A stretch of DNA of 64,000 nt from Psammoneis japonica (GCA_008632985.1 QPGO01000011.1:744001-808000), one strand, 5' to 3'; counted from the stretch's first letter, positions 4,801-56,791 are shown. The notes: generated by a model not told the origin, from the letters alone. Made by a program: numbers and translations.

Positions 4801-4912
4801 TGCGTTGTCCCTCCATTTAATGACAGACGGAGTCATTTGGACTCTCCCGGTTCGTGAAAACGAAACTGCCAATGGGCTTTTCTCCACCCCATTATGTCAA
4901 ATGAATGAATGA
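1884..4912 (+). CDS. VTC-domain polyphosphate polymerase (Vtc4-like): degenerate SPX-like N-terminus + VTC catalytic domain + DUF202 TMs + C-terminal extension; intron 3016-3134
   Basis: Motifs FKRTTTKYWV, ITSIYFD, LLRARWYG, IFLELKTH, SVKER, RAAFQ, LRLTLD, FEVKL, KFSKFLTG, EPKTYFANERTF. A GT(3016)..AG(3134) intron joins ORFs 1884..3032 and 3098..4912 in frame (KSN-D-LRLTLD). Confidence 0.9.
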
Positions 4913-5229
4913 ATTGAGGAGTTCTCTGTACAGTACAAAAATGTTGCAGCCGCTTATATCCATGTACAGCTTGGTTGCAGTCACTCGTTTAGTAGGATAG
5001 TGAGCTTTATTTAGTCTCCAGTTTGTTTCTTACTCTAGAGAATAACTACTCGGACTGAAGCAATTGGAGTTTTGTTGCAGCAACGATGCACGCTGCTCTT
5101 CTTACAGCTGCTCAAATTGTGAGGAAACACCAAAGTTGGACCTGTGGCGAAACCAATGACTAACGTTCACCTGACGTCATTCTATCCCTCAAAACACTCC
5201 CCTTGAGCCAGACTGCCCAGTTCTAGACT

Positions 5230-5760
5230 GGGCTCTAGCCAGATTGCACTTTTCAGCCAAATGTGCCACAATGATCCATTGCTCAACCAAGCAGTTTGGT
5301 CCCAGCCAGCAGACCTGCACCCACTTCAAACAAATAAAGTGGTTCAGCACCAGTTCCTGCTCCAGTTTCACAAAGAAAAGAAGGCCAACAGGTCTTGCAA
5401 TGCTGTCCAGAGACCAACTCCACCCCAGCACCAACAACTTCTGTCATTGAGGAGCGAACCAGGAGGCAGAAGACATGCAGTGGAGGAGGATCTCTTCTCC
5501 CCCTTTATCCAGGAGAACCTTTGTGAGCAGATGCAATTCATCATCATGTGCACTCGAATGATCGACATGATGCCACTCGTCCCGGGCAGATTCCTTCCAC
5601 GAAACTTCTTCCACCAGTCGGGCGCTGCCAACAACAAGAAGGAGAAAACTGCCTGTGTCTGTGGCATCACGACCAACTGCCATGACTGAGCTTGGCAGTG
5701 ATGATGACAGCAACCAAGACAACCAGACCAACCATGATGACGAGGATTGGACCACTCTCT
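5230..5760. other. Small TpA-depleted degenerate island
   Basis: Almost no TA over ~500 bp, with TA-rich flanks. Overlapping C/H/Q/W-rich ORFs show no recognisable motifs. Confidence 0.5.
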
Positions 5761-6193
5761 AGCTAGAAGCTCCCCATCCCTTGGTCTTTTGACCCGACGC
5801 GCGCTTGTCGCTTGGTCCCCACAAGTCCTAGAGTCCAACTCTGCCAACTCCATGCAAGGATCTTGTAATTATGTTTTTATCTATGAATGTAGGACAACAT
5901 GTTACGTATGTTTTGTAGGTATGCTTCTACGTCGGTATGTTTCGTTTGATTCAACAAAAAGTGCTGCCAGAAGATTTGCTCACCCCAACATTCGATAATG
6001 TTCGTTCACGAAGTAAAATCAATGCAATTCCAAAAAAGTGACGCCAGGAGCCGAGAACGAGCGGAACGACACTACGAAGACACACGGAACATTTCTGTTT
6101 GACGGCACCAAACAGCTGCAGCTGTGTTTAATCCGAAGGCAGCTAATCACCAGTCAATCTCTTTTATCCAGAAACTCTCTTGTTGTTTAGACC

Positions 6194-7090
6194 ATGCCTT
6201 ACCATCTTGCTGATGCGAGAGCTGATTCTCACGAGTTTCTGGAGCCAGCGTACCTTCGTGGCCCGAAAGAAATCGGATGTGCTCTCACCGCTTCGCTTCT
6301 CGTGAGTCCTCTGGTTTCCATGATGGATAAGGCCATGGTTCAGCCCATCACGGGAGCTGCACAGTTCATGAAGGCCATTGGCGTTGCCAGTAACGAAATG
6401 GTGACTCAACCAAAGACCTTTTTTGGTGGCCTCTCGTTTCGTCTGACAGCCATTGTCTACTTTGGTACGTATGCCGCTGCCAATTTGAGCGAACTCGCTC
6501 TGGACGTGTACAAGATTCGAGCGGAAAAGAAACGAAAGCAAATCAAGGTGGGCAACGCGTCGGTTGCTAATATCGGTTTGTTGGCGTGGAGGGATTCGAT
6601 CTTTGCTCGAGAATTCAGTGGCGGAGCCGTCAAGCCCAAGAAAACGCCCATTCGCACCATTGGCTTGTTTGCGGCGCGTGATTGCGCCACCATGATTGCA
6701 ACTTTTTATGTTGCTCCCAAGACGGGAAATTATCTCATCAAGGAACACGAAGTCAACAAGCACGTGGCCGAGGTGTCTACCGCCCTGGTTATCCCCGTGA
6801 TTGCGCAGATTTTGACAGCGCCCATTCATATTCACGCTCTTGACTTTTACAGTCGTCCCGTCGCCACCACGGCAGAGCGGATTCAGACAATCAAGGACGA
6901 GTTTGGAAAGATCTCCTTTGCTCGTGGTCTTCGTATTTTGCCAGCTTTTGGTATTGGATCCTACTCCAACAACAAGCTGCGCGAGTCCTTTATTCGTCAG
7001 CCAAACGAGGACCTCTTGCTCAGTCGCAAGGTTACCAAGCTTGTTCAGAGACAAACTGCGGTTATCAGGAGAATGACCAGACGCGAGTAA
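6194..7090 (+). CDS. Membrane protein of unknown function, possibly a divergent mitochondrial-carrier-like protein
   Basis: 298-aa ORF with several hydrophobic helices and carrier-like Pro motifs (PLVSMMDK, APIHIHALDFYSRP, RILPAFGIG); normal codon composition. Confidence 0.65.
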   Translation: MPYHLADARADSHEFLEPAYLRGPKEIGCALTASLLVSPLVSMMDKAMVQPITGAAQFMKAIGVASNEMVTQPKTFFGGLSFRLTAIVYFGTYAAANLSELALDVYKIRAEKKRKQIKVGNASVANIGLLAWRDSIFAREFSGGAVKPKKTPIRTIGLFAARDCATMIATFYVAPKTGNYLIKEHEVNKHVAEVSTALVIPVIAQILTAPIHIHALDFYSRPVATTAERIQTIKDEFGKISFARGLRILPAFGIGSYSNNKLRESFIRQPNEDLLLSRKVTKLVQRQTAVIRRMTRRE

Positions 7091-7634
7091 ACAGTGTTTG
7101 GTGGGAGTTTCATTTTAGTATGTAGGAATAGTGAGTATATAGTCTAGGAGTTCAACTTTAAGTCTAGCGATCATGATTTTGAAGAGTATGAGTGACGTTG
7201 TGGTTTCATCCGTACGTTCCACTCTGTCGGCGCATGAATAAGGAGTATTGAACAGAGAAGAGAAGCATATCGAGGAAGTTCGTTGCGTTTAGGTTTTCAC
7301 CATCGTTACTTTGTTCCTGTGTTTCATCGAACATTCAGATTTGAGCGGGAAGATTATTCCCCCTGGGCGAGAAAACAAAAATTGAAAAATTGGCTGGAAA
7401 GTGACGTTTGCCGTCCTTCCTTTTCGCGTTTCACGCGCACACGGCACGCGCGCTCAAAACAACGTCTGGCCGCTCCCCGAAGCGCCCATAAAGTCCTCAG
7501 TTTCGCGATTTTCGTTTCACTTCGCCGTTGCTGTGTCCATGACCGACACGGACCGCTCTTTTTCAGACGTAAACAAGCTCCCTTTGCATTGCAAGGCACA
7601 TAATATCCCTTATATCCTATCATAGTCTCTCACC

Positions 7635-9427
7635 ATGTCGACTGATAACGAAGAACGACCAGAGGAAGACCGTCTGAATGAAGAAGACATGGAGCGTCTC
7701 ATGATGGAGCAGGAAATGCAGCAAGAAGAAGAGGCCCTGCTTGCCGAGCAAGAGCCCGATAATATTCCGTCGATGCTCCCCCAGAAGACGAACAGCAACA
7801 ACAAGTGCCACAGCAACCAAAGCGTCGGAAGTTTCCATACACGAGCGCGTCGTTTGGTGCAGCCGTCGCGTGTGTCTGGTATGCTCTGCGCACACGCGAG
7901 CAGTGGTTCCTCGCCATGGTGTACTTGAGTTCGTCCAAGTGGGCCTATGTCGTCTTGGGCAATGCTGTTATTGCCCTTTGTACGTGGTCCTTTCACTTTA
8001 TTACCACTCTCTTTATTGACGGCCTCCGTGCCAATGAAGCAGAGGGACTTTCGGATTTCTTTCGTTGGAACGTGACCGAGACGTGTCTAGCTCTCACCAT
8101 GTTTCGATCGCAAATTACCGTAAAGACAGTGGCGCTATTTCTAGTGTTGGTTCTCGCCAAATGTCTTCATTGGATTGTAGAAACACGCCGACAGCACTTT
8201 TGCATGACAGAAGAAGCCGTCGTGCCCAACCCTTCGAGAACCAGTTGGCCCGCGATTCAATCACAGTTTGTGGGAATCTTTTTCTTTTTGCAGTTCCTCC
8301 TCATGGCAGACGTGGTTGCCATTGCTCAGTGCGCTCTAGACATAACCAAGAACGGAGCCTCCGTGTCGGTCTTTTTTGGCTTTGAGTCGGCCATTATGTT
8401 TGTCGCCGCCATGAGCAATCTGCTTCTGGCAAGCTTGCATTTTATCGATGGCTTGGTTCATTGGGCTCACGAGCACAGCTTGGCTGGCACGCGTTATCAC
8501 GCCTTGGCACATTCTGCACTACATGCGTGGAAGGATCACAAGGCTACCTTTACGTTTGCTGTTGAAGTGCAAGCGCAGGCTGCCAAGTTTTTCTTTTATA
8601 TCATGTTCTTTGGCATTGTCTTGAGCCAACATGGCATGCCCATTAACCTGTTTCGGGAAGTGTACATGAGTTTTCAGCAGCTACGTCAACGCCTCTTGGC
8701 CTTTGCCAAGTATAGGCGTTTGATGCAGTCCATGAACCGATTCGATTCAGTCGAGAGTGAAGAGGAGCTCGAAGAGGCTGGCCGGGTCTGCATCATTTGT
8801 AGGGATGCCATGACTCTAAGCGACTGCAAAAAGTTGCCGGGGTGTAATCACATCTTTCACAAGTCGTGTCTACGCGAATGGCTGATTCATCAGCAAACCT
8901 GTCCAACCTGCCGTAGTGACATTACGGTCACAGAAGCTCGCGTCCGGCGTGCTGAAGCGGACGCTGCCGCGCAACAACAAGAGCAAGACGCGGCAGAGCA
9001 ACCGCAAGGCGAACAAGGGGAGACGGAACAAGTGGCCGAGCCACAGCAAGCCGATACGCAACAGACGGAGAATGCTACAGAACCTGTCCCGGAAGAAGCA
9101 CCCGCAGCTTCTGCTCCTCCCGCACCAGCAGCAGCCGCCTCCGTATACAGGTCCCCAGAAGAAGACCCTTCCATTCCCAAGTTGTTCTTTCCGTGTCTGT
9201 ACAAGGTATCCGCTACGGATGGTGCCTACATTTTGAAAAAGCAGAGGACCGGAGGAATGGCTGGAAAGCGGAAACTTCCGCACGGTACGGTAGTTCTGGT
9301 CACTTCCATGGAATTGGTGAGAAGTGTGGATTGGAATGGCACGATTTTGAAAGTTCCAGATGGGTATGTCCTCGACGATTCCGTTGAGCGAATTCCGATA
9401 CCACTTCCGTTGAAAGAGTCTAGCTAG
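7635..9427 (+). CDS. HRD1/synoviolin-like ERAD E3 ubiquitin ligase (one apparent 1-bp frameshift near 7768)
   Basis: Multi-TM N-terminal region (ETCLALTMFR, LAKCLHW, FGFES, MPINLFR) and RING-H2 CIICRDAM..KKLPGCNHIFHKSCLREWL..QQTCPTCR. The acidic N-terminus from ATG 7635 joins if one C is added in 'attccgtc'. Confidence 0.88.
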
Positions 9428-14349: not shown

Positions 14350-14485
14350 CTCCAGAGGTAGAGTACGTACAGTAGGAAGTTCCTACTCTCTACTCATAGG
14401 GCCCTCTACTCTAGCTCTACTCTACTCAAGAGCTAGCTACTCTCTACTCTAGCTACTACTAGCTAGAGAGTAGAGTAGAGTACAG
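14350..14485. repeat. Low-complexity CTAG/CTACT/TAGAG tract
   Basis: Repeated ctactct, ctagct and agagtag units; very TA-rich and immediately left of the TA-depleted domain. Confidence 0.7.
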
Positions 14486-14556
14486 AATGAGCACGCCGTG
14501 AAGAAGCGACTGCATGCACGCATTGTGCCTGCGATGCTGCGCACACCGCACGGAAC

Positions 14557-14789
14557 AGTCACGACTCAACGTCATTCTGGTCGCATCTCACGACTACAAC
14601 CCAGACTCAGATTTTCTCTTCGAAATAAATAGCTCATCACAAAATCGATTCAAACAGAAGCAACGACATTCGTCATAATTTTTAGACAACAACTTTGAAC
14701 AAGCGTCTGTTTACCTCTGTCGCTGTTCACATTGCTACCAACCTCCGAGGTCTTGTCCATCCTGCCCGCTGCAGGACTGCATCTCGACT
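14557..14789 (+). repeat. 5' LTR (AGT...ACT termini)
   Basis: Aligns without gaps to 21551-21783 at 213/233 identical positions. Confidence 0.95.
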
Positions 14790-14951
14790 GGTTGTGGAGA
14801 CCAACTTGCGTGTTGACGAGAGCTCCTGACCGAGTCATCATCACGGACGCTTTTGGTTTTTGATTTTGAAGCAAACCCGGGAAATAGCTGAGTCTCTCTC
14901 GCTTCTCTCGTCTTCATTCTAACAAGAACCTCCCATGCTGCACTCTCTGTC

Positions 14952-17900
14952 ATGGCCACCATCGACCCGGATGTTCTGGCGAAGGCGTTTGCCGATGCAA
15001 TGGCCGCTGACGCTGCAGCAAACGCTCCTCCGCCTCCAACCAAGCCGTCACGTGGCGGAATTCACCCAACCCACGGGGTTTACATTGGTGGTTCCAAACT
15101 CGATGACAACTGTGAACAATCCAACGACAGAACCCACCGACTCGCCTCTCAGTGCCGTCATCCCAAGGCTCTCGACTCGACAGAACGATCTCTCCGCGAT
15201 CAACAAGCTTCCGCAATGACTTCCAAGTTCAACGGTCGACTTGAGATTTCAGACGGTCCCATCAACAAGCTTGACAAGGACCATTTCGTCAAGACCATTC
15301 GAGATCCAGCAGAAGCCCACGGTCAGCAGACGTTCTGCCATGTCAAGAACAGCGACGACAAGGTTCAACACATCTTCGAACATCTCCACGAGTTTACTGT
15401 GACCGATCTCGTGAATGAATACAAGGTTGGGAAAGCAGCCTCCGATGATGCCAAGCACGACGAGATCAAGCTCGACGATGTCGGGCTCTCTCAGCCACTC
15501 GTTCACTCAAGAATCACTGACACCTTTCTCGAGAAAATCGAGACCAAGTTCAACCATCTCAAGGACCACCAAGACCACCCTGGATCTGTTCCATTCATGA
15601 TGGCTCTCGATGCTTGCAATGCCAGCGCTCCAACGGACATTGAGACAGCCAAGAAGCAGCCAGAAGACCTTGGTTTGGTTGGCCATCCCGGCGAGGATTG
15701 CACGGACTTTGCTGCCGAAGCTCTTCGCATCATGAAAATTGTGCAGACCGACCACACGCTTCCGGCGAACACAAGCTCCAAGCTGCTCCACAAGATCTCC
15801 TCTGTGTCCTCTGAATGCTTCAATCGGAGAGTCCACAACAAGCTTGACGACGTCAAGGCTGTGGAACGCAAGCACCGCCTCAACTGACATCACGTCCAAC
15901 AGTGATTGCAACACGCTCGGACCTGTCGGTGTCATTGCGTGGATTCAGGAGCAACACAATGAACTCGTGAAGGATGGGGAGTGGCCTGCTTTGGTCGCCA
16001 AGCTACCCGAGAGCAATCTTTTGACTACGGACAACCCTGGGAAGACGAAGCACTGTTGTGGTTGCGGTCTCGAGGGGTGCACCAAGAAGACGTGCCCGAA
16101 GTGCAATGCCAAACGCCGAGCAACGATCCTCCTACGAATCTGCCACCTGCAGATGACCCTTCCAAGAAGAAGCGGAGACCCATCGCTGCCTGGTGCATTG
16201 AATTTGACGGAGAAACGAAGAAGGACAAGAATGGCAAAGAACGAAAGTGGTGTGCCACGTGCACGGTGAAGGGTGCCGACAAACCTGGAATCCACCAGAA
16301 GCACTCTACCGCGGAACATGCCGCAGACCACAAGCATCCTCCCAAGGAAACCCCAGCCGGGAATCTGTCTTCCGTTGCTGATCTGGACAGTGGCGTGCCC
16401 ATGGGTCCACCAGCTCAGACCACCAAGGAACCAGAGGGAGACGAGTCCGACCCCAACGAGTTGGTTTTCACGGGAATGTGGTGCGCGGCTACGGATGCCG
16501 TTGCCGACCCGGATTTCTTTTCCGACCCTGTTGCCACTGCAGTTGTTGTTCCTCCGGCTTCTTCGGCCGAGAGGGAGAGCGACACAGTCGTCAGCACTGA
16601 GGTGCTTTGTAACGAAACGAGCCCACCTGTGCTCACCTCAGTCGTGGATCCAGTCGTGTCTCCCATCGTGGTTGAGACTGTCACTCCCGAAGACGCCGAT
16701 GACTTCTGCGAATGCTCCAATGCTTTCTCTACATTTGAAAACGAACCACCGGCTGTTGAGTTGTTTCCGGCCTCGAAGCTGTGCTCCATCAAGCATCCAG
16801 ATGAGTTCTTTGATGCTCCCGCAAATTTGATGGACATGCTGTCAGACGACACAAAGTTAGATCTCATCCTTGAACATGACGCACACTTTGAAGACGCACG
16901 CGACAACTTGCCTCCGTGTGTCACATGTCGTGGCTTCGATTTCTATGATCCAGAGATCCTGGATGCGGATGATTGTCACGAGGACGTCGAAGACGAGCCC
17001 ACTTCGCATCGATCAATCTTGGGACGGGTCAAGCCATTCACATTCTGGCTTGCCGCCATGTTTTGGGAAACGGCACTGCACTTTTGCTTTGCTCCAATCC
17101 CAAGCATCCCTCGAGCTCTACGCCGCCAGGGCAAACTCCCAACCTTGCACGGGTTTCCAGCCTCTTGGATGGTCCCATCCGTTGCAGTTGTGGCATGGTC
17201 AGCAGTTTACGCCGGTCGACAGCCCGAGCATCCATTCTCGAACGTGCCAAGCCGTTTTTCGACCGCCAGCTCTCAAGTCTACCACATTGTGGAAGAGCCA
17301 GATGACCGGATAGTGTTAGATGCGGGGTCACTGTTCGAACATCACAGGATCAAAGGCACGCAAGTGCTCACCGAGTTTGTCGCGCGCCATCCGTCACACG
17401 CACTGAGCACTCGTCTCAAGGCCTGCTGGGAGAGCCTGGAAGTAGCTGAAAGGTCTGACACGACAGACAAATCAGCCTTCTTTGATGCCCATGAGGAACT
17501 GGAACCTCTCGACGACCAGAAGCATTTCTTGGACGCTCTTGAGGACTTCAGCCCAGATTTCTTCCGGTTTGATGAGCTCTGTCTGCCCAATCACATCGTG
17601 GACACTGCTCATTTTCAAGATCCTGTGGAACTGTTGGAGGACGCACGTGTTGGGCCAGTCGTCTACAACACCTCCACCATCCAACCACTCACCGGACAAT
17701 CTCAAGCCGACCTTCTTGCATCCGATCCACAGGCACTCATCGGTCTGTCGGATGAAGCTCTGACGGTCGTCATGGATGCTGGTGCCACGTTAGCTGTTGC
17801 CCCCGATGAAGATGATTTTACGGGGCCTGTGACTGTTCCCAAGAAACCCTTGCAAATCAATGGGATTGCCAACGGTCTTGCCATCCAGGGCACTGGTCCG

Positions 17901-20900
17901 GTTGCATGGGTGTTCACCATGCCGAGTGGCGCTGCCATCCAACTGAACACCATGGCGTGCCACGTCCCTGGAGCCCGTCAACGCCTGCCATCGCCTCAAT
18001 GCCTCTTCAACGAAGAGAAGGGGGTGCGTGGGAAGTGTGAGGGCGATGAAACCACTTTCCGTTTGCACATTGACGGGACAGGCAAGTTGGTCGTGCCACA
18101 TCACCCATCAAGCCACTCACCCATTGCATCGATGACCAAGGGCGCATCTGCCGCTCCACAAGTGAATCTACAAATCCTCAACGAGGAGAATCAAAACCTC
18201 ACGGCAGGCCAAAAGCTTCTTGTCGAAATGCACACCCGTTTTGGCCATTTAAACTTTGGTTGCGTCCAAGCACTTCTCCGCACAGCTCCGTTCCTGTCGA
18301 ACTGTTTCAAGTCCGCAGCAAAGTGTGACCACCCAAGATGCGAGGCATGCGAGCATGCTAAAGGTCACAGACGCTCCCTTGGATCTACTCACAAGTCGAC
18401 AGTCCCTGAACGCGACGGGGCCCTTCGAGCTGACCATCTTCGACCGGGTCAGGCTGTCAGCGTTGATCATTTTGAGTCGCGCCTTTCAGGCCGAACCTTT
18501 GACTCATGTGGCAAAGCCATGTCCAAGCAATTCAAGGGCGGTTGTGTCTTTGTCGACCACGCCTCTGGTTGCATCCAGGTGAGCACCAACTGGGTTTCTC
18601 TGCTGTTGAGACGATGCAAGCGAAGCAAGCGTATGAGAAACATGCTTTGGACCACGGTGTCATCATCCAAGAATTTCTCACCGACAGTGGCACTTTCAAG
18701 GCCAACACTTTTGTGCAACATGTGCGAGATCATGAACAACGTCTCCGTTTTTGTGGAACCAATGCCCATCATCAGAACGGCGTCGCAGAGCGGGGTGTCC
18801 GAAGCATCTCCAACATGGCGAGAGCGATGTTGCTTCATGCATCAATCCACTGGAAAGGGGGAATTGACAGCTCCCCATGGCCCATGGCTGTTTCTCATGC
18901 CACGTGTGTCTGCGCTGTCACCCCAAATTCCAAGGGACATTGCCCAGTGGACATTTTCACCGGTTCGACAGTGCCAAGACACCGTTTGCGAGACATTCAC
19001 ACATGGGGATGTCCAGCGTGCGCACTTGATCCGACCCTCGCTTCCGGAAAGAAACTCCTGCATTGGGAACCTCGCACTCATCATGCTTTGTTCGTGGGAC
19101 TCAGTGCCATCCATTCCAGTGAGGTTCCTTTGGTCCTCAATCTACAAACTGGAAGTGTTGCTCCTCAGCGTCATGTGGTCTTTGACGATCTCTTCACTGC
19201 CGTGCCATCAATGAGAGGGAGACGGATCCACCTGATCACTGGGAGCACCTGTGTCTCAACCAATCGACATGCATCCCTCTGGAGAAGGATCAAGCAGTTC
19301 ATTTGCACAATGAGTGGCTCACCCCTCCAGAGCGTCAACGCAAAGAGCGAGAACTGGCCAGAGCAACACGCATTTGCGGCCATTTTGAGCCCACTCCATC
19401 GATTGCTGTGCCGGATTCACCCACTTCTCGCGATGACGTTGCCGATCGAGTCGCACCTGCGACTCAGCAGCCAATGCCACCAGTCCCACCAGCGACTCAA
19501 ATTCCTGCAGACTCTGCGGACTCTGCGCCAATTCAGCCACCTGAACCTCAAGTCAGTGACAAACTTCCGCCACCCGAAGTGCCGATGGAACCAACAGCTC
19601 CTCCCCCAGTCGAGACACCTCCTGTGACGAATCCAGAGGGAGTGTCAGGGCTGCGACGGTCTTCACGGTCAACCAAGGGACAGCTCAACTCTGCCAAGTT
19701 TGTGGATGAAGTCCACTTCAGTTCCGTCAAGGAAATGCCACTGCCGATCGGACACGAGGCTCAACTGGCTCATCTGGCGACTCTTGAGACAGATTTGGAC
19801 AGTGGCACCATCAACATTGGCGATCCACGAGCCTGCGCAGCTAGCAAGAAACCAAGGACCCTGGTGTGTCTTCATCACACAATCTCTGAAAGGTCCGGAC
19901 GCCGACGAATGGATTGAGTCGATGAAAATTGAAGTCAACGCACTCATGCATCTTCGAGCCTGGAAAGCAGTCGAGCGTCAGCCGCACATGAATGTGCTTC
20001 CAGGCACATGGGCACTGAGCTCAAGAGACTCCCAGATGGAACCCCTCTCAAGTGTGAGGCCCGACACTGCGTCCGCGGTGATTTGCAGAAAGAAGGAGTC
20101 GACTGCTTCAAAACCCACGCGCCGGTTGTGCAATGGTCCAGCGTCCGACTCATGCTCACTGCGGCATTAAAGGAGGGATGGACCACACGTCAGGCAGACC
20201 ACACCACAGCCTTTTGCCAAGCTGATGTCGCCGAGGAAGTTTGTGCAACACCGCCGAAGGGTTTTGCGCCGAGGTCGGGACTCAATGTGGTTCTCAAACT
20301 TTTGAAAGGACCACACGGCCTAAAACAGTCTCCCAAGGGCTTCTGCGAGAAGTTGCGAGCTGGTTTAACCGAGCGCGGATGGGTGCCTTCAACCACAGAC
20401 CCCTGTTTGCATTTCAAAGAGGGCATGATGTGTGTGGTGCACGTCGACGACACCGCATTTGCTGGAGCTTCAGCTGAAGCTCTGGAGGAAGAAATTCACA
20501 AGTTAGGAGTCTCCGACGACGAACATTGCCACGCATTTGAACTTAGAGACGAGGGAGAAGTCGGCAACTTTCTCGGCATCAAGATCGAAAAGCTCTCCGA
20601 GGGTCGATTTCTACTCACTCAACCCGGTCTAATTGACAAGGTCCTGCGCACCGCACAGATGCAGGATTGCAATGGAGCATCTGCTCCAGCTCCACCTGCG
20701 GCCATTGGTGCTGACACGGATGGCCTGCCTTTTGATGAACCCTGTGATTGTCGCTCAGTTGTTGGAATGTTGATGTGCTTGGCAGCGAACAGCCGGCCAG
20801 ACATTGCACATGCCACACATCAAGTGGCTCGATTTTGTTTGCACCCCGAGCGTCCCATGCTGCTGCAGTGAAGCGGACACTCTGGCACCTCAAAGCAACT

Positions 20901-21530
20901 GCTGCTGAAGGTCTCATTCTCAAGCCTGCGCAAGACCATCGAGTTGATTGTTGCGTTGATTCTGACTTCACGGGGTTGTTTGGTGTGGAAGATGGTCAAG
21001 ACCCAGTTTCTGTCAAGTCCAGGACTGGATGCCTCATCTGCTGCACCGGCTGCCCGCTTGTCTGGGTGTCCAAGCTGCGGACTCTTGTGGCATTGTCGAC
21101 TGTGGAAGCGGAATGTGTCACACTTTCTCAAGCCATGCGCGATCTCATCCCCATTCGTGAAGTTCTCAAGGAACTCAACCACCATGCACTCGGAAAGTCT
21201 GACCGCCAAAACCCTGTCACGACTCACTGCAAGGCTTTTGAGCTCGCAAACCAAGGCACTGATGACTCGCCTGTTGAGCAGAATGTCCCACCTGCATCCG
21301 TTGTGTGCGAAGACAACTCCGCGTGCCTCAAGTTCGCACGCATGCCTGAGTTGTCTCCACGAACCAAACACACCGGTGTCCCGCACCACTGGTTTGGGAC
21401 CAAAGTCGAACAATTGGAGATCGACATCCAACCTGTCAGCACTCCAGAGCAACTGGCCGATCAGTTCCCAAGGGGGGCTTGCGGACCGATGCGTTCCGTG
21501 TGGCTGGAAAGGCTCTTGTGGGCTGGTGAG
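14952..21530 (+). pseudogene. Degenerate gag-pol polyprotein of the copia element
   Basis: Spread over ORFs 14952, 15739, 15981, 18506, 19303, 19700, 20008 and 20748. Gag Cys/His motifs (CCGCG..CPKC; WCATC..HSTAEH) and PR, IN, RT and RH motifs are recognisable, with Tyr replaced by His/Cys. Confidence 0.9.
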
Positions 21531-21550
21531 CTCTCTCGGTTGAGAGGGAG

Positions 21551-21783
21551 AGTCACGACTCAACGTCATTCTGGTCGCATCTCACGACTGCAACCCAGAC
21601 TCAGATTTTCTCTTTGAAACAAATGGCTCATCACAAAATCGATTCAAACAGAAGCAACGGCATTTGTCACAATTTTTAGACAACGACTTTGAACAAGCAT
21701 CTGTTTGCCTCTGTCGCCACTCACATTGCTGCCAACCTCCGAGGTCTCATCCATCCCACCCGCTGTGGGACTGCATCTCGACT
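21551..21783 (+). repeat. 3' LTR
   Basis: Preceded by the PPT and followed by the TSD GGAAC. Confidence 0.95.
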
Positions 21784-21883
21784 GGAACGCACAGCCGAAG
21801 ACTGAAAGCGCAATCAGATCCTTCTCGCATCGTCCGTCATCCAGTTGTTGTTTGCATTCTTGAAGCCATGGCACAGTCTAAAC

Positions 21884-22872
21884 ATGGGTGGTTCATCATC
21901 GAAACCTGTCAAGTTCCTTCCCGAGTTTGAGAAGAATCTTCCTTCGCTCGACAGCAAAACGGTCGCCATTGCTGGCTGCACGTCGGGGACAGGTCTCATT
22001 GCCGCAAAAGTGTCAGTGCACAAAGGTGCCAAGAACGTGCTGCTTCTGAACCATCCTTCGGAGCGAGCCGAAAATGCAGAAAAAGAAGTCAAGGCCGAAA
22101 TTACGGACGGTCAGAAAACAACGGTCGAAACAATCCCGTGTGATTTGCAAGACTTTGAATCTGTAAAGAACGCAGCTGCCGAAATCAAGAAGAAATGCAG
22201 CGCTGTCGATGCACTTTGCAACAATGTGGGTGTCATGGCAATGGAAGATGAGGCCACCAAGGATGGACACGATGTGCAGATCCAGACAAATCATCTTTCC
22301 CACTTTCTTCTCACCAAGGAACTCTTTCCTCTTTTGAAGAAAGCTGCAGAATTACGTGGAGAAGCACGTGTCGTTGATCACAGCTCGATGGCTCGCAAAG
22401 GTGGTTTGCTTGAGGCTGAATGCTTTGGCAAGAATGGAGGCAACCTTGGAGGAAACTCAAACAGTCTGCATTCAAGCAAAGGCAAGTGGCAAGATGCCAC
22501 CAGTCCAAGCTCGCCAATGTGGTTTTCACCCTTGCATTGAATGATCATCTTGGAAAGGACAGTGGTGTCAAGGCATTCTGTGCTGCTCCAGGATGCTCTG
22601 TCACTGACCTGCAGACTTCGTCGCAAGGCATGGGAGGAGCAATGTGGACTCGTTTCATGGCTCAGTCCGCAGAAGACGGTGCCATGCCCCTGCTGCAGGT
22701 GTGCCATGGCCAAAATGTCGAAAGCGGGGACTTTTGGGAACCGGCAAACCGAGGAAACATGGTTGGTCCAGCAGTGAAGGTGGAGCTGACCAAGGAATGC
22801 ACAGATGAAGATTCTCGCAAGATGCTCTGGGAAGCATCAGAAGAAGCTTGTGGAGCGTTTTCTTTGGAGTGG
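21884..22872 (+). pseudogene. Short-chain dehydrogenase/reductase (retinol dehydrogenase/WWOX-like), hypermutated
   Basis: MGGSSSK N-terminus, AGCTSGTG Rossmann motif, CDLQDFESV, LCNNVGVM, QTNHLSHFLLT. The catalytic motif reads RCHQSKLAN instead of YxxSK, and the protein has no Tyr. There is a 1-bp shift near 22492 and the probable stop at 22870-22872 reads TGG. Confidence 0.85.
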
Positions 22873-23517
22873 CAATTTGGCATTTTAGAAGCAAGATGCA
22901 GGCAAGAATCTTCTCCCAAAAATGCACGCCGCACTCTGCCTGCGATGATCGCTTTGCGTGGACTTTCTTTGCAAATGCATGCGCAATTGTTTGAAAAGCT
23001 GAGAACACCTTCGGCATCATGTTGATTCCGCAGAGCTCATCTGCAATTCCTGGCCCACAGTCCTGGTGCAACGAACCAGCGCCAGAGAGCCAGCTTGGTT
23101 GTTGGACTCTGCCACATCTCAAAAAAGTTCAGCCTCAGAGAGGAACCTCCGCTTGATCACAGTCGTACCTTCAGCTATTGCTAGCTAGCTTAGCTCTGGA
23201 TGCCGGTACGACGATGCGAGCGATAGAAAAGATGATGGAGTTAGATGCGGCACCGGCAGTCGTGTAGTGAGTAGACCTCAGTTTGAACGTCCGTCCGTCA
23301 GCCCCATTATATGCCGTAGATCGCAACCGCCAAAACAGGATAGACTAATCTGCACCCTCCAACATCGCCTCAACGTCGCGTCGCGATCTCGTCGCATATA
23401 ACGCTGTCAAAGCAGCAGCCAAAGCACATCAACCATCCGTTCGGTGGCATATGCAGAGACAAAGCCATAAAATCAGCTCTTAATCTGTGTATTTCTTAGT
23501 TGGTCTAAAAAATTGGC

Positions 23518-25626: not shown

Positions 25627-26364
25627 GCGACCATACAATGATTGATATATCCAGCCGTTTAATGGTGTAAGTTAAGTAAACCAGAAACTAGGGTGTGCTA
25701 TGCTGCTCTTCGGGATAATGCCTCGTGGATTGAGAGTACCTGTGGATAAAAGGGACCCTACTCTCTTTTAGACTAAAACCTGTATGCGGTATCATACGGT
25801 ACGTACTACGTACGGTGTTCAGAAGGGAAAATAAAAAATAATCAAAAATGATGACCTCAGACATGTGTGTCGACGATTGTGTGATTACGCAAGATGCTCC
25901 TTGCAAGCATGTACACACACATGCGGCAGGGCCCTGGTCATAAAATGTCCGTTGAAGTCATGTGATGTGCAGTTCTTTAACGACATCAAATTGTGTGCTT
26001 CGACATTCTACATTAAGACATGAAAACGTCTGTTGAGATTGGTGCATCCGTTGATGCATCTCACACTTCAGTCCAAATCTCTTCCGCCACAGATGGTTCG
26101 TCACATTTTTTTGGGAACCGCTCGAGTTTTTATGCACTCATGGTTGTGCATCTCCACTCTGAACTCCCTGGCCAGCCAGACCACAGAAATGACGGTCGAC
26201 GAAGAAGAGCGAAAACGCAGAAACAGAGAGTGCCAAAAGACATTCAGGAAGAAACAAAAACGGAAAGCAAAAAAGAAGGAAGACAACCAAGCACGGTGCC
26301 CTCGGGTCAAAGAAGAAAAACAACTTCAAAACATCATGGCGACGATGCCATCAATGACTTCGAC

Positions 26365-26760
26365 GCACAATCCTTGGCGAATGGCACTGCCACTCAACCG
26401 ACTCCGGCAACGCACGTGTTGATGCCAGCGGCCGGCAGGGCAGCAACGGTGGACATTGATCAGCAGGTGCGTTTGCTTCTTGATGAGAACAAAGAGCTCA
26501 ACATTTGGGCAAAGCAATTCTGTGACAAACAAGCTGACAACATTTGGAACTTTGTCACTTCGATGCAATCCTTGGCGAATGGCACCGCCACTCAACCAAC
26601 TCCGGCAATGTGCGTGTTGATGCCAGTGGCCGGCAGGGTGGCAATGGTGGATGTTGATCAGCAGGTGCTTTTGCTTCTTGATGAGAATGAAGAGCTTGAC
26701 AGTTGGGCAAAGCTAATTTTTGACAAACAAGCTGACAACGTTCGGGACTTTGTCAAAAGT
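26365..26760 (+). repeat. 198-bp (66-codon) tandem duplication in a relic ORF
   Basis: QSLANGTATQPTPA..VLMP.AGR.A.VD.DQQV.LLLDEN.EL..WAK...DKQADN occurs twice in ORF 26020..26991. Confidence 0.85.
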
Positions 26761-29570
26761 TCCCAAGAGCAACGTGGTGAGGTGATTGCTTGTTTCAGAG
26801 AGAAGGCACAAAATGGCACCATCTGCATGATGGCTCCAAGCAAAAAGAGAAAGAATGAAGACCACATGGACGTGACCATGAATCAAGGATTGGCAGCCTG
26901 CAAAACGGCACCCACTCAGAGAGATCAAATCAAGAATGGCGCTTCACAAAACCATGATCTGTCGTTGATCAAAAAAGCATTGGATCTTTGAAAGCAATCT
27001 GATTCTCGCAATTTCAAAAACCATCCATGAGGCTGTCCATTTGCTTTGAACAGTGGCGTGTCCGGTCCTCCTTGTGTCCTTGGAGTGCCGTGAGACCACC
27101 CAGCACTGATGGACGCAACAGGTGCTTCTCCTCCCTTTGGCGTGAGCCGTTGGCAAACGCACTTGGTCACTCGTGGTGCTTCTCATGCCAAGGGTGCAAT
27201 TCCAAGCATTGACGACTCTTGAGTGCTTTCCAGTGTTGGGAGTGGATGCATTCCCAGCAAGAAGGAGAAGCACATGGCTGGCAGGTGGATTGAAGAAGAC
27301 GCAGACCACCATTCAGTGCCTCGAGTAGAAAATCATTGTCTGGAGCCCGACCCTCATCTCTGGACATGTTTGGTTTTGCACCGACACCTGTTGAAGACAG
27401 GAAACACCCATGTCTCACTGACGGCGAGATTGCCGAGTTTGATCAAAGACTCGAAAACCACTTTGTCCCCAAAGCCAACAGGCCAGTGGAACAGAAAACA
27501 ATCTTGGGTCTTGGATGGCACAATGAAGAGGAAGCCATCAAACTCATGGTTCGATTGAACAGTGAGAGCTGTCAAGGCCACGTGCTCTTGCATTCTAAAT
27601 GCACAGAGCTTTGTGACTTTCTGAATGAGATGGGGAAATGTCTTTGAGGATTGATCATCAAACAGCTCTTGTTGCATCAACACACAAGTCAACGACTGTT
27701 TTGTCACCTTCTCCTTAGAGTCGACCTTGTGTCTGACTCATGCAGCAACCGACAATGTTCTAAAAGTTCCCAAATGCCAGCATTGTCAATTGTTGAGCAT
27801 CCTGCTGTCTCTGTGAGTTTTCTGTGTCCATTGTTTTGAGACCATTTTCACAGTCCACACTGCATGCATTGAAGGTTTCATTCAAACAGACTTCGCAACA
27901 AACTGGAGCACGTGTCTCATGTCAAGGCACATTGCATTGAAGGAAACATGCTCTTGTGCGCATGGAGCGATGGGGTTGCTTTGTGAAACTCTCCTTTGGT
28001 CATGGCAAGGTTGCCGCTAAATGCAACGATTCTTGTTTCAAGGCATCTTGACGGATGCACTCTTTTAGATGTTGCAAGATTGTCCATGGGTGATTCTAAT
28101 GTGATTGCTGTCTTTGTCTGAGCAGCACTGAAGTGTTGTTCTCATTTCTTGGAGATGAGAGGTTGGACAAACACCCACACACAATGGACAAACGGGGTTC
28201 AAAACAATGTCAACATTCATGGTGTGTGAAATCCGAGAGACCGTCGTGAACAAAAACATCAAATCCGCAGAGTGATGAAGATCGGATCATGAGACTGCCA
28301 TCTTCATCACAGACTCTGCCAAGACACTTCGGATGGCAAGAAGGAAATTCCATTTTGTCAGCTTTGGTGTCACCAGGTTCCGACAGTCTCAATGGTTGGC
28401 ACATCAATTTTGAAAAGAGACGGCTTGGCCCTGGCCACCGCAAAAAGCAAAAGTCAACTCACTGCACACTTCTTCCGTCTGCACACTGAGGCAACACTGG
28501 GCCAGAGCCGCTTCTTCGTGTGACCTCACCATCTCTGTGCTCACACCTGCTCGTTTCCATCTTAAAAAAGCAAACGCATGTTGAACATTGAACCAGGAGA
28601 TGAGTCACAGAGAAAAGAGCAGAGCAGTGCAAGCACATTTGTGACTTGCGACCTGCGTGGTTGATGGCACTGGAACAAAAACTTGCATTTAGCTGACCCC
28701 CATTGTCTCTTCAATGCTTTGCAGAAGAACCTGCAAGCCACTGTGATTTGTTGTTCTCAATGAAATGCTCTCCTCTCATGCACCCATTGTCGTCTTGTCA
28801 CCTTCAAGAAAGGTTGAAGCATCGGGTGGAAGCCATGTTTGCACTGGTCAGAGTTCCAGAGATTTTTTGGCCTCAACTGCATTGAAAATTCTGTTTTGAT
28901 TGCAACTTGCCACAGCACGCCATTGTCACATTGCAACTTGTCATCTTGCTCTCTTTCAGACATTGCATTGTCAAGCCAAGCCCCTGTGACATCATCTTTG
29001 CTGTTGTCCTTGTGACATTTGTCACTTTGCTCTTTGCCCTGTTTTTCAGAGACAGCATGTCCAGCTTTTCATTTGGTCTGACCAATTGCAAGGATGCTCT
29101 TTCTTTGAATCTTCCATTGCAATGGCTCCAACAAAGATGAGCCAGTGAAATGCCCGGGCATTCACAAGCTTTGAGCAATCAAATTGGGGAGCATGGCCAC
29201 AAAAGCCACGTTGTTCCACACTCTCTTGGGCGGTGCTGCATCCCATTTGACCAGATTCTCTTCGTGGTTGGTGCTTTCTTGGTTCCCGGCAGAAGCACAA
29301 AAAGGTGCAATGCTGCAAACAAGGCATTGGACGCAGATTGAATGGGACCACCAATGTGAGTTACAAAGACTGCCTTTGTTTCATTGAGATGATCAAAAGT
29401 GTGCACAAGCAGTGAAATCAGCAGCTCAGTTCAAGTTGTTTGAGAACAAGCAAATGACCTCAAATGACCTCATCCTGCACAAATTGCCACAGATTTGTCC
29501 TGCGCTGATGCTGCATGTGCTCCCTTTGAGCAATTGCATGGGTTCTGGTGTGTTTCCACCGCATGACGTC

Positions 29571-31425
29571 GTGGTCTTCGAGCAAGTTGGCATCTGACAT
29601 CGGCTCACATTCCCTCACTCGCGTGTTGCTTGTCAGTTGTGAAAGGCATTGAAAGCACCCTGTTTGTGGTTGCAACAGCATCTGCTGGTGGGAGAATGGT
29701 GGCCAAGCCTTTCCAGAGGTGCACAGCACATTTTTTTTGCTGGCAGATCCTGTGCACACCAGCTGGTGTGTCCACAGCCTTCTTGTTGCAGCAAGCTGCA
29801 ACACGCCAGTTCCTTCCTTTTGGCATGTGCTGTTGCCATGAGTGGCTCCAGTTTGAGGATGAAACATCTTGTGTTGGCTGAGTTGCAGCCATTGCCAGAA
29901 GTCATCAGCACTGTGCAATCTTGTGATGGTGCTGTGGCTCCAGCGCGGCAACATCATGGTGTGAGTGGCCAAGAGCCGGGGGGGGGCAGTCTTGCTTGCT
30001 GGTTGCTCACAAGTGCGCACTTTGTGGGAAGAAGCCAATGTTGCTGACACATGCTCAGCAAGCAAAGCCACATTGTGCAGGTGGTGTGGAAAGGCACAAA
30101 CTCCAAAAGAGACTGAGGTTGCCAGCAGCACACGCGAGCCTCTGGGAGGCAGCAAGTGCAGCCAGTGGACTGATGGCAAATGAAGAGGCAAAAATGGATG
30201 AGACTGCAGCAAAGGAGGTGCTGAGAGACTGGCTGCACCTTTCAAATTGGTTGGACAGAGAGTCAACTTGCCACCACCTCTGGCTGCATGGCATGGCTCT
30301 TGGCTTTGCCACCAACCATCACTCCCAAAGATTCCCAGAATTTCCATGCCTGCTGTTGCACCTCAGCAGTGCTCTGTGAGACCCAACATCGTGGTCTTTG
30401 AGCAAGTTGGCATCTGACATCGGCTCACGTTCCCTCACTTGCGTGTTGCTCATCAGTTGTGAAAGGCATTGAAAGCACCTTGTTTGTGGTTGCAACAGCA
30501 TCTGCTGGTGGGAGAATGGTGGCCAAGCCTTTCCAGAGGTGCACAGCACATTTTTTTTGCTGGCAGATCCTGTGCACACCAGCTGGTGTGTCCACAGCCT
30601 TCTTGTTGCAGCAAGCTGTGCAACATGCCAGTTCCTTTTGGCATGTGCAGTTGCCATGAGTGGCTCCAGTTTGAGGATGAAACATCTTGTGTTGGCTGAG
30701 TTGCAGCCATTGCCAGAAGTCATCAGTGCTGTGCAATCTTGTGATGGTGCTGTGGCTCCAGCACAGCAACATCATGGTGTGAGCAGTGATCCTGTGCACA
30801 CCAGCTGACACGCCGGACTCCACAGCCTTCTCATTGCAGCAAGCTGCAACACGCCAGTTCCTTCCTTTTGGCATGTGCTGTTGCCATGAGTGGCTCCAGT
30901 TTGAGGACAAAACATCTTGTGGTGTTGGCTGAGTTGCAGCCATTGCCAGAAGTCATCAGCACTGTGCAATCTTGTGATGGTGCTGTGGCTCCAGCACGGC
31001 AACATCATGGTGTGAGTGGCCAAGAGACAGGGGGCAGTCTTGCTGGTTGCTCACAAGTGCGCACTTTGTGGGAAGAACCCAATGTTGCTGACACATGCTC
31101 AGCAAGCAAAGCCACATTTTGCAGGTGGTGTGGAAAGGCACAAACTCCAAAAGAGACTCAGGTTGCCAGCAGCACACATGAGCCTCTAGGAGGCTGCAAG
31201 TGCAGCCATTGGACTGATGGCAAATGAAGAGGCAAAAATGGATGAGACTGCAGCAAAGGAGGTGCTGAGAGACTGGCTGCACCTTTCAAATTGGTTGGAC
31301 AGAGAGCCAACTTGCCACCACCTCTGGCTGCATGCATGGCTCTTGGCTTTGCCACCAACCATCACTCCCAAAGATTCCCAGAATTTCTGTGCCTGCTGTT
31401 GCACCTCAGCAGTGCTCTGTGAGAC
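29571..31425 (+). repeat. Nested tandem duplication: ~820-bp unit, a truncated second copy and a 5'-truncated third copy
   Basis: The unit starting GTGGTCTT(C/T)GAGCAAGTTGG occurs at 29571 and 30391. Copy 2 breaks at ~30785 and restarts at GATCCTGTGCACACCAGCTG (equivalent to 29746), running to ~31425. Confidence 0.9.
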
Positions 31426-33154
31426 CCACCAGACCTCGAAACACGCACTCCATTGGGTGCTGCACAACCCTCCCCAGCAAAGTGTGGCAGTTCTTGACAT
31501 GGTTGTCACTTGCACCCAATCAACCCAACAAAAAAGACATCAGCAAAACACTGCTGCTGTGAAAGAAGGAGTCGTACTCCTCTCTCACAGAGCTGATGCT
31601 GCAGTGTCAGCTTGCAAAAACTTGTGAGATGCTGCCACTGCATGACTTGCAACAAACAAAATTTGCTGCCAGCTTGTGTGATGCTGTTGATGAACAGCCC
31701 CACAGCTCGCCATTCTGGCACATGCACAAGATGCAATTTTTGTGGCTGGGTTTTCTGCATGTCATGCCAGGAACTTTCTTGGCCTTGTTGTCCAAATGGA
31801 AAACATGCAAAGCTTGCTGCAGCTCCCATGTGCTGGATGTCAGCTCACAAGAGGGCACAAACCTGTGCATTTTTTGCAAAGCACATCACCAAGGAGGTGG
31901 GCACCAGCGGTCATTTGGCAAGCCTCAAACACCCAGCCCAACATGCTCAGCTGGAGGTCAGCTGTGCCAGGCATTGCCAGTGTGAAAGTCCTTGCCTTTC
32001 CTTGGCCAATGACATTGCCAGCTGCTGCTCCTTTGTCCATCATCCAGGCTCTGAGATTGCACACAGACCGGCCCATGTCCTGCTGTGAGCAGTCTTGCTT
32101 GGCACAGGACCCCTCTGTTTTCCTTGGCACATCATCAACGGCATTGCTTGGAGGGCAGTTTGTTGGCATTTGGGAGCCACCACAGCTGGAGAGAGCAAGC
32201 CCTTGTGAGATCCACAATTGTGGCATCTCATGCCCACCCCTTGTCAGTTTGGACAGCTTGCTGGGAGCAAATGGCTTGGACAACGGGCCTCCTGGCCCTG
32301 GCTGGCTGGACGGCTTGATGGTGACACAATTTGATGACATCAATGGGCAAAAAGATTGGGTGCTGTGGCTTTCCTGTTGCACAGTGTTCAGCAGCTACCT
32401 CAGCCACCCACACAACAATCAGATTTGCCACTCTCCTGAAAATCTTTGGGCTCATGAATGACAATGCTGCAATGATGGCCAGCCACATGAGAACAAATGC
32501 TCAGTTGGGAGGTGTGTGCACTGTGGGCAGGCAGTGCCAACGCATGTGATGAAAAAGTTCACAAGCCAGACTGACTTCACAGCACCAAGGTTGTCAAGTC
32601 ACATTGCTGCCACAACAATGTGACCTTGCTTGTGAGCCCACACCACAAAATTCTCATGTGTTGGGCAGACCACACTGAAGGGATGGGCAACAAAAATTGC
32701 AGCTCAGTGGTGCATCACAAGCCTCAAGTGCGCTAAAAAGGAGAGTGCCCCACCCCCGCCACACAGCTGGGGTGGCAAACCAACTGCAAAGTGGAGTGGG
32801 ATGGCACAGGGAGTGGCTGCAACAACTTGTCACCTGCTCTGATGCCAGTGTCCCATCCACCTCATGTCACAGTCACCTCCAGCACACCAGCAGCCATCTG
32901 CCAACCAATTGCTTTTGACTGATCTGGTGACTTGTCTGTGCTGCTTTTCCACATGCACCAGTGGAGCATGCTTTTTTGATGATTGCCATCACCTGAGCCC
33001 CACACTGCCCAGCACAACTGCCAGCTCATCAGGCAGGCAGATGTGTGCAACATGCACCCACTGTGACTGAGACAGTTGCCCACACCACAGCCCACAAAAA
33101 GATGTGCAGGACAACACAAGTCCACAAACAAACACCAGGATTTTCTGCACAGAA

Positions 33155-35140: not shown

Positions 35141-35674
35141 GATGCCGCCAGTGGGCAGAGCCAAGCCAGATCACCTTTCAACACACCAGTCACGCAGTCC
35201 CTGGGCCCTTGGTTGTCCAGCCTGCTCACCAAGAGCATCTTCAGACTGTTGAGAGTGGCCGCACACTGGACTTTTCCCTTTTGTTGCTCTCCCAGGATTG
35301 CATGTCTCAAGCCACAGCTCAGGGTTCAAAGGACCACAGGACAAAGGCAAGACATTTTGGCTCCATGTTGTGGTGGGGCTCCACTCAACATTTTGGACTG
35401 GATTTGACTGCCAGTTTTTGCAGCCTTTTTCAGTGGAGTGACACTGAACTTTCCAAGTTGAAAGCCGCAGCTTGCCTGGAAGATGTGTCAGCCATCACAA
35501 AGCAGGAAGCAGGTGCCACTGCCACAGCTGACAGCTTGTCAAGACCAACTTTTTCCACTTGATTGCACACAGACAGGCACTGCATCATGTTGATGAGTTG
35601 CTTGTGGTCACATTCCAACATGGCCAAAAAAGAAGAAAAACAGAGCTGCCCGCATGGAAGCATTCTTTGCAGAG

Positions 35675-38853: not shown

Positions 38854-38949
38854 GATGTCATTGCTTCGTCGACGGTTTGGAGGTTTAGGTTGCAGTACGA
38901 AAAAAAAGAAAATTCGCACCGGCGCCAAGCGCGAAGAGCGCGCCGCAAT

Positions 38950-46617: not shown

Positions 46618-47039
46618 GCTGATTTCGCGGGGTGGAGTCTATTCGTAGCTGATGTTTCTGTGGTCGGCTTTGTACATTTAAGAAGTCGACTTTCTCGACA
46701 TCGCGTCAATCCCTCTCGTTGTCTTAGAAACGATTGAATTTACTGAGGACTCACCTTATCAACGGCTTTACGCCGCTGTTGAACATCATGGTGTGCCACA
46801 CGTTTAGACTGAGTTCGCGTTTTCGCTAAAAATCTTCGCTTCATTCGTTCATTCGTTCAGCCTCCCGCCAAAACGTCTGTCCGTCCCTCCCTATCATTTC
46901 AGAATGGACCCCTCGCCACCCTCACACAACAGTGATGAGGGGTGAGGAAAATCATCCAGATCCCGATGAAGGTGGGATCCCAGTTCTGTTTACAGAACAG
47001 TGGAAAGTAATTGCTGCTCTCCAAAGTGTGGACTAAATG

Positions 47040-56638: not shown

Positions 56639-56791
56639 NNNNNNNNNNNNNNNNNNNNNNNNNNNNNNNNNNNNNNNNNNNNNNNNNNNNNNNNNNNNNN
56701 NNNNNNNNNNNNNNNNNNNNNNNNNNNNNNNNNNNNNNNNNNNNNNNNNNNNNNNNNNNNNNNNNNNNNNNNNNNNNNNNNNNNNNNNNNN
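56639..56791. other. Assembly gap (153 N)
   Basis: Run of N. Confidence 1.

Follow-up and report, generated by a model that had tools for sequence, protein, structure and literature searches.

Hypermutation of DNA by change of TpA to TpG or CpA is described so far in one 2026 preprint on one chlorarachniophyte, B. natans. According to the available text of this preprint, mutation accumulation in B. natans gave 231 mutations in two integrated viral regions, of which 230 were A>G or T>C; all the GC-biased mutations fell on TpA, at a rate of about 6e-7 per site per generation and in some lines only (bioRxiv 10.64898/2026.01.13.699255). TpA-poor clusters were found to be enriched in reverse transcriptase (RT) and DDE domains, and an ADAT2-like candidate was proposed (Mettrop et al. 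2026, bioRxiv 10.64898/2026.01.13.699255). Here, a comparable footprint is described from a diatom. The DNA analyzed is a stretch of 64,000 nucleotides from Psammoneis japonica (GCA_008632985.1 QPGO01000011.1:744001-808000), referred to as the window, and all positions are counted from its first letter. The window contains a copia long terminal repeat (LTR) retrotransposon at 14557-21783 and, downstream of it, a host gene for a short-chain dehydrogenase/reductase (SDR). Very probably, this element was inserted once and the DNA from about 14740 to 23165, including the SDR gene, later underwent a regional conversion of TpA to TpG or CpA at the DNA level. The features new in this locus are the LTR pair as a built-in control, a boundary of the mutated domain inside an LTR, the apparent inactivation of a host gene and the concurrent decay of CpG.

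In the literature on diatom hypermutation, RIP-like (repeat-induced point mutation) processes and TpA depletion, no description of TpA hypermutation in a diatom was found, and the B. natans preprint alone was relevant among the literature on TpA depletion and hypermutation. As far as the available text of the preprint goes, the mutational process in the window appears to match TpA hypermutation of B. natans in context, direction, strand symmetry and regional confinement. In both, A>G or T>C at TpA yields TpG or CpA depending on the strand, and regional TpA depletion is accompanied by enrichment of CpA and TpG. The two cases differ in lineage, a diatom (Stramenopiles) here and a chlorarachniophyte (Rhizaria) there, and in target, which is an LTR retrotransposon along with repeat domains of unassigned origin in the window and a giant-virus/virophage insert in B. 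natans. The process of B. natans is confined to foreign-DNA regions, while the TpA-depleted domain centred on the copia element (domain A) also takes in one host gene. The depletion is deeper here, with an observed/expected ratio (O/E) of TA of 0.03-0.10 in comparison to a Rho of 0.45 for the nucleocytoplasmic large DNA virus region of B. natans. CpG decays alongside TpA here, whereas the words CpG and diatom do not occur in the preprint text available. The evidence from the window is comparative while that from B. natans consists of de novo mutations.

Fungal RIP is likewise a transition-only inactivation of repeated or mobile DNA which acts at the DNA level in a dinucleotide context, and it leaks into adjacent single-copy genes. 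In RIP, C is replaced by T, chiefly in CpA, so that TpA arises and the DNA becomes AT-rich, whereas the domains found here lose TpA (about 5- to 18-fold depletion) and their GC content is raised from 0.478 to 0.50-0.54. Two identical LTRs fared differently here, so homology alone does not determine the target. Decay of methylated CpG to TpG or CpA, including reciprocal TG/CA pairs, resembles a slower component of the present pattern (four LTR sites), but it is unable to change Tyr (TAY) to His or Cys or to remove TpA. ADAR and APOBEC enzymes also produce deaminase-type clusters of transitions on retroelements, and ADAR prefers U before the edited A as well. They act on RNA or on minus-strand complementary DNA before integration, leaving the LTRs alike and the host flanks untouched, and the opposite was observed here.

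That such a footprint occurs in a diatom suggests that a system of genome defence or of mutation is widespread in a major group of marine primary producers and has been overlooked so far. An enzyme behind it, if there is one, would be a naturally occurring editor of adenine in DNA, with specificity for TpA.

Differences between the two LTRs of one insertion

The element is assigned to the Ty1/copia LTR retrotransposons on the basis of its LTRs, its target-site duplication and the integrase-before-RVT_2 order of its domains on the + strand. The duplicated pentamer GGAAC is perfect on both sides, so a single insertion event is indicated. The LTRs were compared by ungapped alignment of 14557-14789 with 21551-21783 and showed 91% identity, a value also found independently by repeat search. 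No further LTR copy was detected in the 64-kb window, as a 20-mer of the LTR with up to 3 mismatches allowed matched the two LTRs only. Six metagenome loci matching this 20-mer were rejected as chance matches; they share the 20 bases alone and showed no further LTR similarity by blastn.

The two LTRs differ at 20 positions of 233 bp, all of them transitions. Such an outcome has a chance of 3e-4 at a transition to transversion ratio of 2:1 and of 0.04 at the ratio of 685:121 observed across the element family. Eighteen of the differences are located within pyrimidine-purine (YpR) dinucleotides, which cover 110 of the 233 positions (binomial p = 8e-5). TA in the 5' LTR is opposed to TG or CA in the 3' LTR at six sites (14596, 14626, 14631, 14676, 14713 and 14737). 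At four sites CG is opposed to TG or CA, with the CG in the 5' LTR at 14621, 14671 and 14705 and in the 3' LTR at 14691. Four reciprocal pairs, in which TG in one LTR corresponds to CA in the other, were found at 14724-5, 14754-5, 14763-4 and 14772-3. The remaining two differences (14666 and 14726) have other contexts. Seven TpA are present in the 5' LTR (TA O/E 0.40) and one in the 3' LTR (TA O/E 0.06), and the AATAAA at 14624-14629 reads AACAAA in the 3' LTR. An initial annotation of the window had counted the same 20 transitions in the same classes, with the same numbers of TpA and the same change of AATAAA; the count was confirmed in the alignment and the classes were exactly reproduced.

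All seven TpA retained in the 5' LTR fall between 14595 and 14736, while the four reciprocal sites are confined to the right-hand 65 bp or so of this LTR. That the retained TAs precede the reciprocal sites (exact Mann-Whitney test, p = 0.0095) is the prediction of a boundary near 14740 with both LTRs inside the domain to its right. Domain mapping by per-kilobase dinucleotide ratios, a TpA map, 200-bp bins and a list of TpA gaps showed that domain A is offset from the element, with its left edge inside the 5' LTR and its right edge 1.38 kb past the 3' LTR. At the left edge the last retained TAs are those at 14712 and 14736, with sparse TpA beyond. Both edges are sharp; at the right one a single TpA at 22886 is followed by dense TpA from 23166, and the flank at 21789-23165 has a TA O/E of 0.06. 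In the rest of the window, taken as background, 1468 TpA were counted, with a TA O/E of 0.54, a CG O/E of 0.99, a GC content of 0.478 and a TG/CA O/E of about 1.16. The TG/CA O/E per kilobase bin was about 1.3-1.5 in domain A, where TG and CA number 687 and 793, and it reached about 2.0 in the most depleted bins of the window at 30-35 kb. The LTR pair represents a natural controlled experiment, in which two copies 7 kb apart differ in that one was mutated in its U3-like part, and it places the boundary within about 30 bp.

CTAGCTAG-rich (CTAG/TAGCTA-rich) low-complexity stretches were observed just outside the edges of domain A, at 14400-14487 and 23176-23195. Until the element was inserted, the left one stood some 170 bp before the SDR start codon. 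The CTAGCTAG-rich stretch was ruled out as a signal that marks domain boundaries in general, being absent at the edges of the other five TpA-poor domains.

Direction of change in the reverse transcriptase and the host SDR gene

The changes were polarized by protein homology, using conserved columns of the RT and of the SDR. The RT open reading frame (ORF) at 20008-20871 was aligned with 57 homologues. All seven conserved Tyr columns are now occupied by His (CAY, 4) or Cys (TGY, 3), the YVDD motif reads HVDD at 20440, and no Tyr is present in 287 aa. In 56 of the 57 homologues at most one of these seven columns shows His or Cys. Conserved columns carry 28 replacements, of which 13 can be explained by a single transition, and all these 13 are changes of TpA to TpG or CpA. 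The remaining homologue (P0053), from an environmental metagenome, has His or Cys at four of the seven columns and a Tyr content of 1.6%; its pattern may reflect a similar TpA loss in related elements of other organisms.

The SDR gene lies in the same orientation as the element. Its closest relatives are diatom transcriptome proteins with 76-77% identity, with the source names Extubocellulus and Synedropsis. The best homologue was covered by tblastn over all its 330 aa in two frames; the frame breaks once, near 22489, and there is no intron. Column statistics were taken from 103 full-length diatom homologues. These have a mean of 6.4 Tyr in comparison to none in the SDR of the window. The catalytic Tyr, present in 103/103 homologues, is now Cys (TGC at 22495), and further Tyr residues were changed to His at 22268 and to Cys at 22421 and 22196. 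Thus all three conserved Tyr columns were lost together with one Tyr of 70% conservation. An Arg conserved in 103/103 homologues is now His (CGT>CAT at 22052). The 12 single-transition replacements at conserved columns comprise six TpA losses, four CpG losses and two others. TGG is found directly after the last aligned codon, consistent with an earlier TAG stop. In run X1 the summed contig depth was 76-93 over the SDR flank as against about 2400-8800 over the element, so the SDR gene is low-copy. Judged from its sequence, the gene was probably inactivated as collateral damage. Such inactivation of a host gene, here by change of the catalytic Tyr to Cys, would carry a fitness cost and can shape the gene content near transposons.

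Taking RT and SDR together, all ten conserved Tyr codons are now CAY or TGY. Single-transition replacements at conserved columns number 25, consisting of 19 TpA>TpG/CpA, four CpG>TpG/CpA and two others, in agreement with the direction from TA claimed in the initial annotation. The 19 TpA losses gave TG in 11 cases and CA in eight. As the two products are about equally common, both strands must have been hit, and no strand bias pointing to single-strand (R-loop) targeting was seen among the polarized sites. Out of 12 conserved Arg codons, nine are still CGN, two are AGA and one was lost (CGT to CAT). The loss of conserved codons is therefore 1/10 for CGN Arg and 10/10 for Tyr, and CpG loss in domain A is roughly ten times less complete than TpA loss. 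On this protein comparison, TpA in domain A is destroyed through T>C or A>G with near-complete penetrance.

At the six single TA sites of the LTR pair, the best reading is that the 5' LTR kept the TAs which the 3' LTR lost. For the reciprocal pairs, the initial annotation had left the choice between an ancestral TA and an ancestral CG. Both origins were compared under an independence model in which the number of sites lost in both copies was taken to be double that of the visible reciprocals. The TA-origin model fits (observed 1/6/0/8, expected 0.5/6.5/0.5/7.5; chi2 = 1.2), and the CG-origin model is rejected (observed 10/3/1/8, expected 6.5/6.5/4.5/4.5; chi2 = 9.2, p = 0.002). Since CpG loss per copy amounts to only about 10% elsewhere in the domain, double hits at one CpG should also be rare. 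At 14772-3, a site with CA in the 5' LTR and TG in the 3' LTR, one contig of run X2 reads TA. The same contig has TA also at the next CA common to both LTRs, as predicted for the hidden class of TAs hit on the same strand in both LTRs. Given the model fit, the low CpG loss, the position of the retained TAs and this contig, an ancestral TA rather than CG is favoured for the reciprocal pairs.

One read sample contains the stretch (share 0.40), and its contigs were compared with the window. The element family is highly repeated and its 806 differences are dominated by transitions (685:121). Counts of changes private to this copy rest on the 40 best-supported of these 806 differences, at each of which all the other placed family contigs depart from the window. 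Among these 40, five sites with TA in the family read CA or TG in this copy and ten sites with CG in the family read TG or CA; three reciprocal doublets and two sites with TA in the window and CA elsewhere were also found. Out of 2706 placed contig pieces, 516 are at least 99% alike. At 21879, the sole covering contig of run X1, which is from the same organism, reads C, giving CA where the window has TA. This difference could be a polymorphism or ongoing mutation, and as de novo evidence it is only suggestive.

Proposed course of events and rival explanations

Mutation on chromosomal DNA in place is indicated because the effect extends to a host gene, which never passed through reverse transcription, because the two LTRs of one insertion differ, and because this copy carries private changes. 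The initial annotation had argued from the LTRs that the mutations arose after insertion, at the DNA level and not by RNA editing before reverse transcription. These claims hold up, with one target-site duplication, TpA loss over the host SDR gene and five private TA losses. Its suggestion of weaker activity at the left edge of the domain agrees with the start of the TpA-poor DNA near 14740, inside the 5' LTR.

A single insertion would have placed the element 100 bp before the SDR gene, with both in one orientation, and duplicated GGAAC. After insertion TpA would be changed to TpG or CpA by A:T to G:C transitions on either strand. Each strand of a TpA has one adenine to be attacked; TG would result from a hit on the + strand and CA from one on the - strand. 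A single hit would leave no TpA on either strand and make the site immune, so that TG and CA would accumulate as end state and CG would neither be produced nor rise. The LTRs would behave as independent replicates. A TA hit in one LTR only should give TA versus TG or CA, the same TA hit on opposite strands should give a reciprocal TG/CA pair, and hits on the same strand should leave no visible difference. The left 180 bp or so of the 5' LTR would have been outside the domain and kept its TAs, while the identical sequence of the 3' LTR was inside and lost them. The slower decay of CpG to TpG or CpA alongside is presumably ordinary deamination of 5-methylcytosine (5mC). By analogy with B. natans, for which it was proposed with an identical signature, deamination of adenine by an enzyme acting on TpA in DNA would be the most likely chemistry.

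As identical LTRs 7 kb apart fared differently, targeting by position, such as chromatin or transcription state, and not by homology alone is suggested. A possible but doubtful extension is that the hypermutated domain equals the transcription unit of the element. Transcription would start in the 5' LTR downstream of a TATA-like stretch at 14675-14685, read through past the 3' LTR with its AACAAA into the SDR gene, and end at the terminator of that gene near 23165. This would explain the spared U3 of the 5' LTR, the mutated U3 of the 3' LTR and the sharp right edge. If true, it would mean a transcript-guided genome defence in diatoms which directs TpA-specific adenine editing to both DNA strands; the system might be common to algae of the Stramenopiles-Alveolata-Rhizaria group and would include a natural adenine base editor for DNA.

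The raw LTR divergence is 8.6%, as against two differences in the 123 non-YpR positions and no transversion, so LTR dating would overestimate the age several-fold. The view of the initial annotation that the insertion is young and its LTR date inflated is plausible in the light of these few non-YpR differences. The internal region carries several frame breaks. In such genomes LTR-divergence dating would be badly inflated. Annotation of transposons by protein homology will fail as well, as Tyr codons and TAA/TAG stops disappear.

Several points weigh against in-place TpA mutation after a single insertion. Differences in rate among CpGs could produce an apparent misfit of the CG-origin model. 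None of the 20 LTR sites is among the best 40 of the 806 family differences, and within these 40 the losses private to this copy are more often of CpG (10) than of TpA (5). Some of the TpA loss in the internal region may therefore go back to a source copy that had been mutated before. The several frame breaks in pol and the one in the SDR gene suggest some age or assembly indel errors. The LTR asymmetry could also mark no true boundary of the mutational activity, having come from gene conversion or recombination that copied the left part of the 5' LTR from a less mutated copy, or from an assembly or polishing artefact, as the family is of high copy number (the depth over the element far exceeds that over the right flank in run X1) and other family contigs have one extra base relative to this copy at 18580, 19212, 19848 and 20836. 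Such an origin is very improbable, since the intact target-site duplication speaks against inter-element recombination, the retained TAs coincide with a regional change of TpA density beside a unique flank of normal TpA content, the 516 near-identical contig pieces argue against it and the SDR evidence is independent of the LTRs.

The rival that deserves most attention is in-place loss of TpA through biased mismatch repair, by a T:G glycosylase or a very-short-patch-like system in methylated silent chromatin, although we regard it as unlikely. A system that restores deaminated 5mC would over-correct replication T:G mispairs at TpA to C:G, much as Vsr repair depletes CTAG in E. coli. CpG also decays in the TpA-poor domains (CG O/E 0.19-0.78 against 0.99), which are thus presumably methylated, and the absence of strand bias (11 TG, 8 CA) is expected of repair on duplex DNA. 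In domain A, however, TpA loss is nearly complete and CpG loss is slight, with no simple scaling with 5mC damage; moreover the bursts of B. natans occur in some lines only, at about 6e-7 per site per generation, from which the authors infer a regulated enzyme, as far as the available text of the preprint goes (bioRxiv 10.64898/2026.01.13.699255).

It is highly improbable that the pattern came from the common decay of methylated CpG, or from a C-to-T process similar to RIP, on sites that were ancestrally CG (or CA/TG), with the TAs of the 5' LTR derived. C-to-T change creates TpA, yet domain A has a TA O/E of 0.095 next to normal values outside, the conversion of 10/10 conserved Tyr codons to CAY or TGY requires T>C or A>G, the TA O/E of 0.40 in the 5' LTR is not above the background of 0.54, and the CG-origin model did not fit (p = 0.002). 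These stand against the four LTR sites that are plainly CG versus TG/CA, the reciprocal TG/CA pairs expected from CpG deamination on opposite strands and the ten private CG>TG/CA changes among the best 40 of 806. ADAR-like A-to-I editing of the element RNA before reverse transcription, with the mutations carried in, is hardly credible as the source of the pattern. U before the edited A is an ADAR-like context according to the discussion in the B. natans preprint text available, and some internal TpA losses may be common to family copies. The two LTRs have their U3, R and U5 templates in common in retroelement replication, so changes made before integration cannot make them differ; the SDR gene and its 3' region bear the same signature, and editing of single-stranded genomic RNA would give A>G of the sense strand only, whereas both strands were hit about equally. 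At most, RNA editing could have added a little to the changes of the internal region.

Organization of the element, other domains and neighbouring genes

The coordinates of the element, the domains and the SDR gene are compiled in Table 1. The pol region is split over at least five overlapping frames. With broken pol frames, HVDD in place of YVDD and an RT devoid of Tyr, the element has no intact autonomous coding capacity.

Table 1. Features of the copia element, its flanks and the TpA-poor domains of the window
Feature	Position	Strand	Remarks
Target-site duplication (5 bp), left copy GGAAC	14552..14556	+	Same pentamer at 21784-21788
5' LTR	14557..14789	+	233 bp, termini AGTC...GACT; repeat search and alignment
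Putative gag ORF	14952..15887	+	311 aa, no Pfam match
GAG-pre-integrase domain	18228..18362	+	PF13976, E = 6e-4, below gathering score; in long pol frame 15981-19214
Integrase C-terminal SH3-like domain	18986..19189	+	PF25597, E = 5e-5, below gathering score; other frame than preceding segment
Ty1/copia reverse transcriptase RVT_2	20050..20688	+	PF07727, E = 3e-27
Polypurine tract	21542..21550	+	Directly 5' of 3' LTR; read from sequence, putative function
3' LTR	21551..21783	+	233 bp; repeat search and alignment; single TpA at 21677
Target-site duplication, right copy GGAAC	21784..21788	+	Immediately 3' of 3' LTR
Host SDR gene	21884..22872	+	PF00106, E = 4e-20; 100 bp 3' of 3' LTR, co-oriented with element
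TpA-depleted domain A	14738..23165	.	8428 bp, 43 TpA, TA O/E 0.095, CG O/E 0.78, GC 0.536
Five further TpA/CpG-poor domains	26131-35840, 38896-40258, 47034-47703, 51484-53435, 57409-59297		TA O/E 0.03-0.06, CG O/E 0.19-0.35, TG/CA excess

Together the six domains cover 24,012 of the 64,000 bp (37.5% of the window), with TA O/E values of 0.03-0.10. By CG O/E, domain A is the least decayed among them. In the other five domains no credible Pfam match was found in 78 ORFs of at least 100 aa, and none in seven ORFs starting with ATG; these domains may derive from old transposons, viral inserts or mutated host genes. Tandem or dispersed repeat pairs in the second domain (26368-26557 versus 26566-26755; 29566-31431) likewise differ by CA<->TG doublets. 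The pair at 26368 and 26566 has five such doublets, and at each of them the first copy has CA where the second has TG, which hints that single episodes may strike one strand of one copy. The region 51001-54000 showed strong strand skew (GC skew -0.19 to -0.32, AT skew -0.21 to -0.39), and the domain at 51484-53435 has more TG than CA (217 versus 148), unlike the other domains. An assembly gap of 153 N is present at 56639-56791 in a kilobase of low GC content (0.34).

Upstream of the element, a second host gene, coding for an E3 ligase, was found at 7916-9427 and has only diatom-named relatives. Two adjacent ORFs at 1884-4912 contain a VTC domain in two halves and a DUF202, and their TpA content is normal. 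They are probably parts of a single gene for polyphosphate synthesis (VTC), interrupted by an intron or by a change of frame.

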